This document shows, piece by piece, positions 2,768-5,700 of a stretch of DNA of 64,000 bases. The stretch spans positions 29,856,150 through 29,920,149 of the forward strand of contig NC_134026.1 in NCBI RefSeq assembly GCF_964204645.1. Direction: 5' to 3'. The stretch comes from Tubulanus polymorphus (taxonomy: Eukaryota; Animalia; Nemertea). How positions within the stretch are numbered: the stretch's first letter is position 1; each line of letters begins with the position of its first letter. The notes under the pieces were generated by a model. It was given only the letters and a program-made list of their open reading frames with translations. It did no database searches and was not told the DNA's origin. The translations under genes and the position numbers were made by a program.

Positions 2768-5700
2768 ATGTCTCGTTATTCTAGACCACCAAACACTTCT
2801 CTTTACGTCAGAAATGTTCCCGATAATGCAAAGTAAGTATCTGTCCATATGCTTTGTTTGTTAGAAAACCGTATTTGTAGGTTTCTTGAGTATAAAGTGG
2901 TACAAAATCTTTATCCGTTCGGTGTCGGTCAATCCGCGACCGCATCATATTCATCATTCATTGATCGGTTGCCGCCGGCGCAATCGTCATCATCCAGAGC
3001 TGCCAACTGTTTCTTATTTCCAGCATTTGTTTCAATCCTGTGAAACACTCGTGAAACACTGAGTTGATTTGTAAGATGCAATGCCAATGGCCAATAAATG
3101 CATTGCAGATATGAAATGAAAGATGTGGCTGATTGATTGCTCGAGAGGGTCTTAACGAAACAACCATTTAATTAAGCTGATTAATATCATTTGAACATTT
3201 TCATTTAAGAAAAAAATGTCACTGAAAAAATTTCAATTATTTACTGATTCAGAGGTTGGAATCGCTGGTCAATCATTCTCGATCTCTTGACACTGTCTGT
3301 GTGATGGACTATCGGTTGATTGTTGATCTCAGCGAAACTCCAGCTCCATTGCATTATGGCTTTATTATTATGACAAATGTTTCATAAGTATTTATTGAGT
3401 GAAAGAATCATCAATTTACTCTCAATCTCTGAAATGATTACACTTTGTTCAGCTGAGCCCTTGTCTTTAATGTGTACCTCATCCATTCACCTGTTTGGTT
3501 GTTGGGAGTGGTTTGAACTGTTTCCTCGTTAAGCCACTCGTAGTTAAGTGTTTAATTAAGAGAGAATTAGAAGGAATATTTTCCGTATCTGTAGAGCCGA
3601 AGAAATCAGAAGTCTTTTCGGTAAATATGGTCCGATAGCTGATGTTTACATTCCTGTTGATTATTATACAAGACGCGCGCGAGGATTTGCCTACATACAA
3701 TATCCTTTTCCCACTGGAGCTGATTATAAATTAAAATGAATTTCAAGGATGTCAAAGTACAGCAGCAGGAGGAGCAGATCCAGGGCAAGAACCTTACCAG
3801 ATTGTTTCTAGGTTTCAAAAATAGAGCATTCTTCTAGCACGGCTCTTCACACATTTTTGACAAAATTGTGTCTTATCTTCATATAAAAGCTTTAAATTTG
3901 GTCTCGTTCATATGACCATCAGGGAATCAGAAAAATCAGGGAAATTTCAGGGAATTTGGATTGTCATTGGGACCATGTGTTTCTTTATCAATACATGACT
4001 CATGAAAAAATGAATAATTTGTAACATTTATACCTAATACATTCCTTGGATTTACTCAGGGAATTTTGTATTATATTATGGAAAACTCGAGAAAATTTGA
4101 TGGAAGTGGCCACCGTGTACCAGTCTTCATGCTAGCTGAATTGACATTGCTCCTCTGCCACAACTCGACCATCCTTTAAATTCATTTTAAAACATTGTTT
4201 TAAGTCTTATTTGTACCAGTTGTTTGAACATTTTCTTCTTGATTTTGTCAGAAACAAAGACAAGTTACTGCTACTTGCGAGCAAGATACAGTTATCAAGT
4301 CAGTTAACAGTTACAAGCGAGCCAATTACCCATCAATACAAGTCACAGTTACAGTTAAAGGGTCAAGTCAAGTATTACCCAAAATTAGTTGTTGTCAAGA
4401 GATAAACCACGCCTCAAGTTGTCAAGATCTAAAGATATAGTTCACACGGGTTTTACTCGCGAGTTGGCGTGAATGAATTGGTTTATCAAGTTTCAAGTAT
4501 AGAGTTCAAGTTCATAAAGTCAAGAATAACAGAAAGAACCAAAAGTTGCCTGACTTCAACAATCATGAAGTTCAAGTATCTAAGAGTTCTCAATACAAGA
4601 CTACAGAATACAATACAAGTTTATGGGTAACCGACCAGTATCCAATCATACTCAAGCAACGGACCTACCATCGCTGATTAGAGTTCATGTAAATTCAAAA
4701 TTTTGGTAAAGTATTTTCTGTGTAATGGTTTAGGATTTTCATAAAGCTTGCTCGTCCCTACTGTCAGTTTGATTGGGTGATCATTGATTTAACTAAATGA
4801 ATAGTTCAGCGAGTAATGAGTGAAATCATTCTGCAGTGTCTGGTGTGTGGGTTTTTAGGGATTTGGGAAGAATTGCTTTTCAGCGTAAAACAATCCTTAA
4901 CTCAGTAGAACATTCGACGATCCTAAAGACGCGGAAGACGCTATGTACGGATTGGATAGAACTCGTTATTACGGTCGTGAGCTGGAAATCGAATTCGCGA
5001 GAGGAGATCGTAAAAGTAAGTGTCCAGTCTTCTCCTCCAGATGGCGTGATTAGCATTCCATCTCATGTTGTCATTGTAGATGAGCTTTGAATTGAATTTT
5101 TAGGCTCCTGAATGGTAGTAATATTATTATACGATAAACTATACTTGGTTGACATTTCAACTCCTCCTCTGTGTAATAGAAATGTAGTAGAAATTTACTG
5201 CAGAAGACTGAATAACTACCGGCGACACCTTGTGGATCGTCATCATTTCTCCATTAAACGAAGCACCCATGATTAGGATTTCTATTTTCGCCTCCAACAA
5301 AGCAAGTGCTTCGTGAGAGTTAAATTTACTTGTTTATTGTAGCACCGGGTCAGATGAGAGGAAGAGACCGAGCTAGACGACGTGGTTCTCCTCATCATAG
5401 AGGTCGTTCTAGAAGTCGTAGTCCGAGGTAATTAATTACAAATCTAATATACTGTTTATCTAAACTAATATCTTAACTCAATGTTCTTTGTCACTAAATG
5501 TTTGTGGATGGTAGCGTAATTTACTAAATACTGTTTACGTTGGATGCTTAGATGTGTTTTGTTTTCAGTATAGGATGCCGGGTGAACTCATTGCTCATAT
5601 AGCATGCTTTGTTCATTTTACAGGTCTCGTTCTAGAAGCCCTTATTCCCGATATAGGTAAGATCTGTGTGTAGTATTTCATGTGTGATTGAAGTATTAAG

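Follow-up and report, generated by a model that had tools for sequence, protein, structure and literature searches.

A 64,000-nt stretch of the genome of the nemertean Tubulanus polymorphus (NCBI RefSeq assembly GCF_964204645.1, contig NC_134026.1, positions 29,856,150 to 29,920,149 of the forward strand; here the window, numbered from its first nucleotide) carries a gene that is, judged by its sequence, the nemertean SRSF10. A block dense in CAAG words lies inside its minor (AT-AC) intron, and we find this block spliced as a stop-bearing exon, here called X, that replaces exon 2. At a probability of roughly 0.68, we consider that X is a poison exon whose array is bound by SRSF10 and diverts transcripts from the protein-coding form. 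A self-limiting switch of this kind is known from vertebrate Srsf10 (Meinke et al., 2020; PMC7244321; statements on published work refer here and below to the passages available from each paper), and it is likely to be ancient. An earlier sequence-only reading of the same DNA had proposed both a non-productive exon opening at the U2 acceptor 4251 and an ancient circuit; the first is borne out by a spliced joint and the second gains support from orthologous introns.

Splicing of Exon X in Tubulanus polymorphus

Seven exons (2768-2832, 3595-3699, 4912-5015, 5343-5427, 6061-6099, 6451-6594, and 7289-7370) join to encode a 207-aa protein identical at 207/207 residues to RefSeq XP_074643266.1 of T. 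polymorphus. Homologues of this protein are named SRSF10/12-like, and it has the layout of that family, a single N-terminal SRSF10-type RRM (PF00076) followed by an RS region. The RefSeq-matching join needs the AT-AC intron 3700-4911, and among joins there only the AC acceptor at 4911 yields the RefSeq protein. This outer intron has the marks of the U12 class: an RTATCCTT donor, the branch site TCCTTAAC 11-12 nt from the acceptor, and no pyrimidine tract.

Four sequencing runs (X1-X4) cover the stretch, none of them recorded as RNA. Run X2 is read as RNA because GT..AG joints at exon borders occur in it alone and because its exon depth is several hundred vs. about 12 in introns; it also holds four of the gene's regular exon joints, none of which occurs in X1, X3, or X4. 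Joint 2832>4252 (depth 618.7, GT..AG) links exon 1 directly to X and skips exon 2. Joint 4637>4909 (depth 248, GT..AG), present among the runs only in X2, links X to exon 3, while an unspliced X2 contig at 4608-4938 (depth 303.7) retains the intron 3′ of X. The CAAG block is, with hardly any room for doubt, a real spliced exon of 4252-4637, and in this single sample the X route is taken often. For exon 2, the summed depth is 114.6 at 3682 vs. 12 at 3785, an excess of roughly 90-125, contig depth being a weak measure of abundance. The premature stop in the frame of exon 1 and X lies 232 nt upstream of the next junction, well beyond the 50 nt of the rule for nonsense-mediated decay (NMD) as cited in PMC7244321.

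The sequence-only reading had placed the entry of X correctly and its exit wrongly. It had named U2 donors at 4627 and 4706, followed by U2 acceptors at 4836 and 4883; these motifs are present (GGTAAC at 4626, TGGTAAAG at 4704, CTGCAG at 4831-4836, TTTTCAG at 4877-4883), and the X2 contigs leave X at 4637 and rejoin at 4909 instead. The donor at 4638 and the AG at 4907-4908 had escaped that reading. In the X2 bin 4604-4770, three listed contigs predict a depth of 428.58 and 428.6 is seen, which leaves no room in the X2 sample for donor 4627 or 4706. No joint between exon 2 and X is among the 15 joints listed of 86 in X2. Runs X3 and X4 have gaps over X, exon 1, and the last exon, from which nothing was concluded. 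Sequence differences in X2 (zero over X vs. 4/599, 15/390, and 9/324 in intron contigs) were not used, since two intronic contigs also have zero.

Composition of the CAAG Block

The minor-intron motifs recognized earlier were all recovered, namely ATATCCTTTT at 3700, TCCTTAAC at 4894, the AC ending at 4911, and TTTTGTCAG ending at 4251. So was the strand asymmetry of the block: between 4252 and 4626 CAAG occurs 17 times in sense and once in antisense orientation, where local composition predicts 1.9 (Poisson P 2e-11). Enrichment was judged against the rest of the window and, for orthologues, the locus flanks. The richest 375-nt segment elsewhere in the 64 kb has 7 CAAG in sense and 4 in antisense orientation, none of 200 dinucleotide shuffles of the intron reached 16 CAAG per 350 nt, and of the 256 4-mers CAAG takes first place in the intron. 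The block is neither a tandem repeat nor coding, as had been claimed: a tandem-array search of the window found none there, and a coding role was ruled out by stops in all three frames of X, Pfam giving just a sub-threshold DUF493 match. No Rfam family was found in the window.

Small repeats nearby in the intron (high depth at 3936-4102) might suggest that the block is a transposon remnant or a compositional accident spliced as noise. We give this a negligible chance, given that X has single-copy depth (one contig of the DNA-like run X1, depth 33, spans 3145-5064), that the window holds no second copy of X, and that a like array stands at the like place in all nine distinct complete orthologous introns described below.

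A Proposed U2/U12 Interlock at a Shared Branch Site

The donor used by X, GTATCCAATC at 4638, is the sole RTATCC within the intron; it matches GTATCC at +1 to +6 and departs from consensus at +7/+8. From it, splicing passes over two upstream YAG sites (4836 and 4883) to reach an AG that adjoins the U12 branch site. This AG (4907-4908) sits 3 nt before the AC acceptor and 8-9 nt from the branch adenosines, the U12 branch-to-acceptor optimum being 11-13 nt (PMC3584512). Since mixed AT-AG and GT-AC intron ends are disfavoured (PMC3584512), this would explain the pairing of the AT donor with AC and of the GT donor with AG. The inner intron is probably removed by the minor spliceosome, and TCCTTAAC would then be the branch site common to both routes.

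Both exon 2 and X combine a U2 acceptor with a U12-type donor, the inner donor being assigned to U12 by sequence alone, and exon 1 joins either; the first of these links rests on the RefSeq protein and depth, the second on the observed joint. With this arrangement the intron between exon 2 and X would not be removable, and X is very probably mutually exclusive with exon 2. The acceptor of X is also the stronger of the two (16 vs. 12 of 20 pyrimidines). An alternative is that 4638-4908 is a weak major-spliceosome intron and X an ordinary U2 poison cassette with plain exon 2 skipping. The GT-AG ends, the non-consensus +7/+8, and the short branch-to-AG distance are in its favour, as is a clade of five orthologous loci with a U2 donor at the end of X and an AG 4 nt ahead of the AC. 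It is nevertheless unlikely, considering that the donor reads GTATCC, that upstream YAG sites are bypassed, that the equivalent donors of two orthologues start with AT, and that vertebrate exon 3 likewise ends in a minor donor (PMC7244321). Joining of exon 2 to X would be barred under either account of the inner intron, because exon 2 has only the AT U12 donor.

In the vertebrate protein models P0192 and P0205 an extra Ser-Thr precedes FED, and P0192 joins exon 1 directly to this Ser-Thr. The tandem AG/AC acceptor, with AG 3 nt before AC, may be conserved, rodents included, as deduced from protein only.

We propose the following scheme. The exon 1 donor joins the X acceptor, and the X donor joins the AG at 4908 or the inner intron is retained, with the stop at 4403 in either case; the productive form joins exons 1, 2, and 3 through the AT-AC intron, matching RefSeq. 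Both U12 donors would use one branch site, the first donor base selecting AC or AG, and the X forms would be eligible for NMD or be retained. Weak definition of exon 2 by the minor spliceosome together with SR-protein loading on X would favour the poison route. With SRSF10 itself bound to the (A/C)AAG array, more SRSF10 would mean fewer protein-coding, minor-spliceosome transcripts. Orthologues suggest that X and vertebrate Srsf10 exon 3 probably derive from one ancestral element, kept as a motif-dense block and not in alignable form.

Orthologous AT-AC Introns

Metagenome contigs scanned for the junction pattern yielded 27 loci. Two (L021 and L025) were dropped as chance matches, and the other 25 are SRSF10 genes that collapse to 16 distinct ones; the pattern required YIQ and so covered YIQ genes, with YVQ genes outside its reach. 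Junction-pattern scans of prokaryote genomes and viral contigs returned 0, 1, and 0 matches, the one (L028, bacterial) being due to chance. Each of the 25 SRSF10 loci has ATATCCTT at one shared codon position, the pattern itself having fixed ATATCCT. Shuffle tests covered 14 introns, those of the window and of 13 of the 16 distinct loci. In 12 of the 14, (A/C)AAG reaches 21-27 per 350 nt, a density attained by 0/200 shuffles of each, and the controls do not exceed 12 per 350 nt (flanks) or 10 (remainder of the window). Of the distinct orthologous AT-AC introns that are complete, 9/9 (annelid-like, bivalve-like, ascidian-like, and unplaced) carry a corresponding block dense in CAAG or AAAG, and so do L022 and L024. 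Five loci (L001, L002, L003, L006, and L022) form one clade, so that these introns represent about six independent lineages, not twelve. With acceptor 4251 in use, the block no transposon fragment, and orthologous introns enriched, none of the three findings that the sequence-only reading had named as speaking against it was made.

The favoured word differs among loci. CAAG is de novo the top 4-mer in the window, L004 (63/68 to Lamellibrachia), L010 (65/68 to Ruditapes), L016 (unplaced), and L024, while AAAG ranks first or second in the five-locus clade, L017, and the ascidian-like L008 (92% to Ciona and Phallusia over exon 3). The AAAG-type L017 and the CAAG-type L024, the latter represented by just 35 residues, cluster with one unnamed protein (support 100/98) in an RRM tree of 69 columns that is mostly unresolved. 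By eye, no RRM residue change cleanly tracked CAAG vs. AAAG.

Blocks open 5-12 nt past a pyrimidine-rich YAG in L004, L008, L010, L016, and L017 and, in the five-locus clade, directly past an acceptor that is conserved; the L024 acceptor is weak and was chosen by eye. Block lengths are 256-484 nt where both ends could be called, and X begins just 66-69 nt downstream of the minor donor in L008 and L010. The final (A/C)AAG has an RTATCC no more than 6 nt away in L004, L010, and L016 and no more than 18 nt away in the window, against a background of 0.03 per 100 nt, and the donors equivalent to 4638 begin with AT in L010 and L016. Within the clade, the acceptor, the two AAAG clusters, and a donor reading G|GTAAGA are kept, and the middle of the block drifts with mixed-length indels. 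A GT site at +18 past the minor donor, reminiscent of the downstream donor of vertebrates, is present in the clade and L004 and was not seen in the window, L008, or L010. Both wirings, with and without such a site, seem to occur.

The X contigs of run X2 are deeper than exon 2 (619 vs. roughly 90-125), which is high for an NMD target and might indicate that X transcripts are a stable functional product: a nuclear reservoir RNA, a 72-aa peptide, or a re-initiated RRM-less RS protein. Exon 3 has an in-frame ATG, and an RRM-less isoform is annotated in Ciona savignyi (P0148) and reported, in the available passages without this mechanism, in PMC10573349. We regard such a product as quite improbable: all 12 X sequences carry stops in every frame, the aligned clade has the mixed-length indels just mentioned, the short product of the vertebrate gene is barely detectable (PMC7244321), and contig depth is unreliable.

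Among further observations on these loci, the minor intron of L016 has AT-AG ends (GGCCTTAACCAGATCAG), an unusual pairing. L001, L002, L003, and L006 have the branch site ACTTAAC and an AG 4 nt upstream of AC, which could give the U2-donor form of X a 3′ end shared by the major and minor routes. The SRSF10-like L014/L018 has an AT donor and no recognisable exon 3 or branch site ahead of the RS exon; exons 1 and 2 are contiguous in L014, and L018 has an acceptor at that place. Misassembly, a pseudogene, or an odd structure are candidate readings of this locus. The fish gene model P0155 starts with MKFK before its equivalent of exon 3, and a short open reading frame in X at 4565 starts likewise; this may hint at AAG-rich words in a fish inner exon or be chance.

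Candidate Readers of the Array

Published SRSF10 motifs are AGAGAV and AAAGACAAA (review PMC8522700). When up to one mismatch is allowed, the 12 X exons have 6.4 AAAGACAAA sites per kb and the remaining sequence 0.25 (exact matches, 5 vs. 0), and the AAAG-type blocks match this motif, obtained by systematic evolution of ligands by exponential enrichment. The sequence-only reading had suggested that the motif or the trans-factor may differ from that of vertebrates. The CAAG array itself stands, and the motif appears better described as (A/C)AAG, which would tie the array to the known SRSF10 motif. For CAAG, the balance tips slightly toward SRSF10 as main reader; SRSF10 with a drifted binding word would be favoured, at modest odds.

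The same exon and wiring could instead be read by Tra2 or another SR-type factor, amounting to cross-regulation in CAAG-type lineages. In Drosophila, Tra2 acts through CAAGR repeats, and in an exon these form an enhancer dependent on Tra2 (PMC3245930), SRSF10 cooperates with TRA2 proteins (PMC8522700), and CAAGR accounts for 17/25 of the CAAG words in L004 and 13/18 in L016. The share is just 5/17 in the window, too few for a Tra2-type CAAGR element there, 5/13 in L010, and 10/22 in L024. Moreover, AAAG-type orthologues match the SRSF10 motif, the blocks of the sister loci L017 and L024 have the same position, and the vertebrate exon answers to SRSF10 (PMC7244321). A reader other than SRSF10 is on these grounds doubtful.

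Weighing the Interpretation

Several points weigh against X as an ancient, SRSF10-bound poison exon. The splicing evidence consists of contigs from one run of one sample, its kind unrecorded; the 15 joints listed of 86 do not include the productive 2832>3595 or 3699>4912, and a rare route from an extended exon 2 to X may exist. The inner donor is off the U12 consensus at +7/+8, and its AG is closer to the branch adenosine (8-9 nt) than the optimum. SRSF10 feedback, binding, and decay of the X forms are steps that we infer, and CAAG-type exons fit AAAGACAAA poorly, with 0-1 near-matches each.

Other such points come from the orthologues, whose blocks are known from metagenome contigs alone, as predicted exons. 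The (A/C)AAG (MAAG) class was set post hoc, from the data. The block is absent in 5 of the 16 distinct loci. Four of these have short or unfinished introns (70, 379, 501, and 2006 nt): L005 and L019, both shuffle-tested and unfinished, and the unshuffled L012 (379 nt) and L020 (70 nt). In the fifth, L014/L018, neither exon 3 nor a block appears over 2.6-2.8 kb, and the density reaches 12 per 350 nt. RTATCC at the block end was not found in L008, L017, L024, or the five-locus clade, and the wiring varies, the clade having CAG|GTAG at +18 and an X that ends in the U2 donor G|GTAAGA, and L004 having GT|GTAAGT at +18. Finally, X does not align with any of the other loci (best E 0.44), so that convergence could also account for the blocks. 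A common origin of X and vertebrate exon 3 is, on balance, quite likely.

Relation to Known Systems

Tubulanus X shares with vertebrate Srsf10 exon 3 the gene, the AT-AC intron, a non-productive inner exon of like length (in mouse, 356 nt were kept up to the replaced minor donor; PMC7244321 methods), a U2 acceptor, purine-rich elements, a terminal donor that is minor or, in Tubulanus, minor-like, and a productive form that needs the minor spliceosome. In vertebrates, competing minor and major donors at exon 2 make up the switch; exon 3, with its GA-rich enhancer, is reached from the major donor 3′ of exon 2 and ends at a polyA site, its inner minor donor being seldom used (PMC7244321). In Tubulanus, exon 1 joins X with exon 2 skipped, the inner donor is used, and the array is one of CAAG. 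The window has just a weak GTACAG at 3757 as a competing major donor 3′ of the exon 2 minor donor, with no such joint among those listed; no AATAAA or ATTAAA occurs in X or the next 300 nt, and the contigs, which cannot show RNA ends, run into exon 3. The sequence-only reading had expected the vertebrate architecture, and of this the non-productive U2-acceptor exon within the minor intron is present, whereas its wiring (2832>4252, then exit through 4638) is not that of vertebrates.

Interlocked U2/U12 mutually exclusive exons are known from JNK (MAPK8/9) exons 6a/6b and TMEM87a/b (review PMC8329584). Two U2 acceptors, two U12-type donors, one upstream major donor, and, as proposed here, one downstream branch site are common to these genes and Tubulanus SRSF10. 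JNK and TMEM87 choose between two coding exons, whereas one option in Tubulanus is a likely poison exon, and its AT and GT donors use separate acceptors 3 nt apart. The poison exons of Tra2a/Tra2b (PMC3240583) are likewise non-coding, about 300 nt long, rich in the words of an SR-like regulator, and used in feedback; they rely on all-major splicing and AGAA words and are alignable across vertebrates, while in X word density alone is conserved. CAAG words are also repeated in the Drosophila tra2 pre-mRNA, where five intronic CAAGR of the M1 silencer cause intron retention (PMC3245930), in contrast to the 17 exonic CAAG, mostly CAAGY, of a spliced exon in Tubulanus.

We found no invertebrate version of the Srsf10 circuit in the literature, coverage of subscription papers and preprint supplements being thin; the available parts of PMC4379411 and PMC11347168 had no match for terms of such a circuit. 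SRSF10 was seen only in bony vertebrates in PMC3173450. Most minor-intron evolution has been argued to be neutral, with regulated exceptions allowed, in PMC10639083, which in the passages available cites Meinke only. The vertebrate circuit is already published; its proposed bilaterian reach, the interlock that skips exon 2 and has tandem AG/AC acceptors, and the change between CAAG and AAAG seem to be new.

If the scheme holds, the Srsf10 circuit, known in human and mouse, would extend to protostomes and a tunicate and offer a functional reason for keeping one minor intron across bilaterians. A regulatory poison exon could then be conserved without alignable sequence, and alignment-based screens would miss such exons. 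AAAG vs. CAAG arrays and the two wirings would form a natural experiment on the co-evolution of an RNA-binding protein and its feedback element. More speculatively, a minor-spliceosome-gated poison exon may have been kept since the bilaterian ancestor as binding-word density, its word switching at least twice from AAAG to CAAG or back (the sister loci L017 and L024 included) with RRM specificity or a hand-over to Tra2, and in some lineages a U2/U12 interlock may run AT-AC and GT-AG routes on one branch site. X would in that case be a natural read-out of the evolution of RNA-binding specificity.

Other Features of the Intron and Window

Table 1. Positions of SRSF10 exons and of splicing and structural elements in the window.
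Feature	Positions	Strand	Evidence
SRSF10 exon 1, coding part (ATG to U2 donor GTAAGT at 2833)	2768..2832	+	RefSeq protein match; donor used in X2 joint 2832>4252
Exon 2, productive; RRM core with RNP1; U2 acceptor (12/20 pyrimidines), U12 donor	3595..3699	+	Protein match; X2 depth
Canonical U12 AT donor ATATCCTTTT	3700..3709	+	Motif
5′ arm of predicted long-range RNA duplex; covers weak GTACAG at 3757	3731..3777	+	Pair probabilities mostly 0.8-1.0
3′ arm of predicted duplex, 60 nt upstream of poison-exon acceptor	4147..4190	+	Pair probabilities; 4156 T>C in X2 breaks one pair
Strong U2 acceptor of likely poison exon, 16/20 pyrimidines	4229..4251	+	X2 joint and sequence
Likely poison exon X, 386 nt, 17 CAAG and 6 AAAG	4252..4637	+	X2 contig bounded by joints 2832>4252 and 4637>4909
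Premature stop TAA, exon 1-X frame	4403..4405	+	Translation; 232 nt upstream of next junction
Internal GT donor GTATCCAATC (GTATCCAA), U12-like, non-consensus +7/+8	4638..4647	+	Used in X2 joint 4637>4909
Inner GT-AG intron, partly retained	4638..4908	+	X2 spliced joint vs. unspliced contig
U12 branch site TCCTTAAC	4894..4901	+	Motif; 8-9 nt to AG, 11-12 nt to AC
Tandem acceptors AG (4908, for GT donor of X) and AC (4911, for AT donor of exon 2)	4907..4911	+	AG: X2 joint; AC: RefSeq protein
Exon 3, C-terminal part of RRM; begins at 4909 when joined to X	4912..5015	+	X2 joint and protein match
RS-domain exons 5343-5427, optional 5624-5656, 6061-6099, 6451-6594, 7289-7370	5343..7370	+	X2 joints; protein match

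The predicted long-range duplex (Table 1) is built on a 21-nt inverted repeat (3731-3751/4170-4190) that the sequence-only reading had passed over. Its predicted energy is -51.6 kcal/mol, equalled by 0/200 shuffles and 7/1000 background pairs, and with it formed the minor donor and the X acceptor would be no more than about 90 nt apart; the fold of the whole region has a z of about 0. Nine other loci lack the duplex (best L004, 10/200), so it was rejected as a conserved element and is treated as a predicted, lineage-specific one. Low-copy repeat words (TCAGGGAATTT) lie at 3930-4080 inside the predicted duplex loop and again near 980-1140.

Two optional in-frame RS microexons occur downstream, one at 5624-5656, included in RefSeq isoform X1, and a candidate at 5766-5804; joint 5425>6059 of run X2 bypasses both. 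A further SRSF10 intron holds, at 6719-6993, a very high-copy element like a miniature inverted-repeat transposable element, with 35-nt terminal inverted repeats and a depth in run X1 of up to 113,044. The neighbouring gene encodes a COE/EBF transcription factor (PF16422; 13571-13897 and 52992-54194, + strand), and its later open reading frames look, by eye, like C-terminal exons. A CT-rich tandem array of 1.7 kb, with a period of 24 and about 70 copies, occupies 26026-27712.

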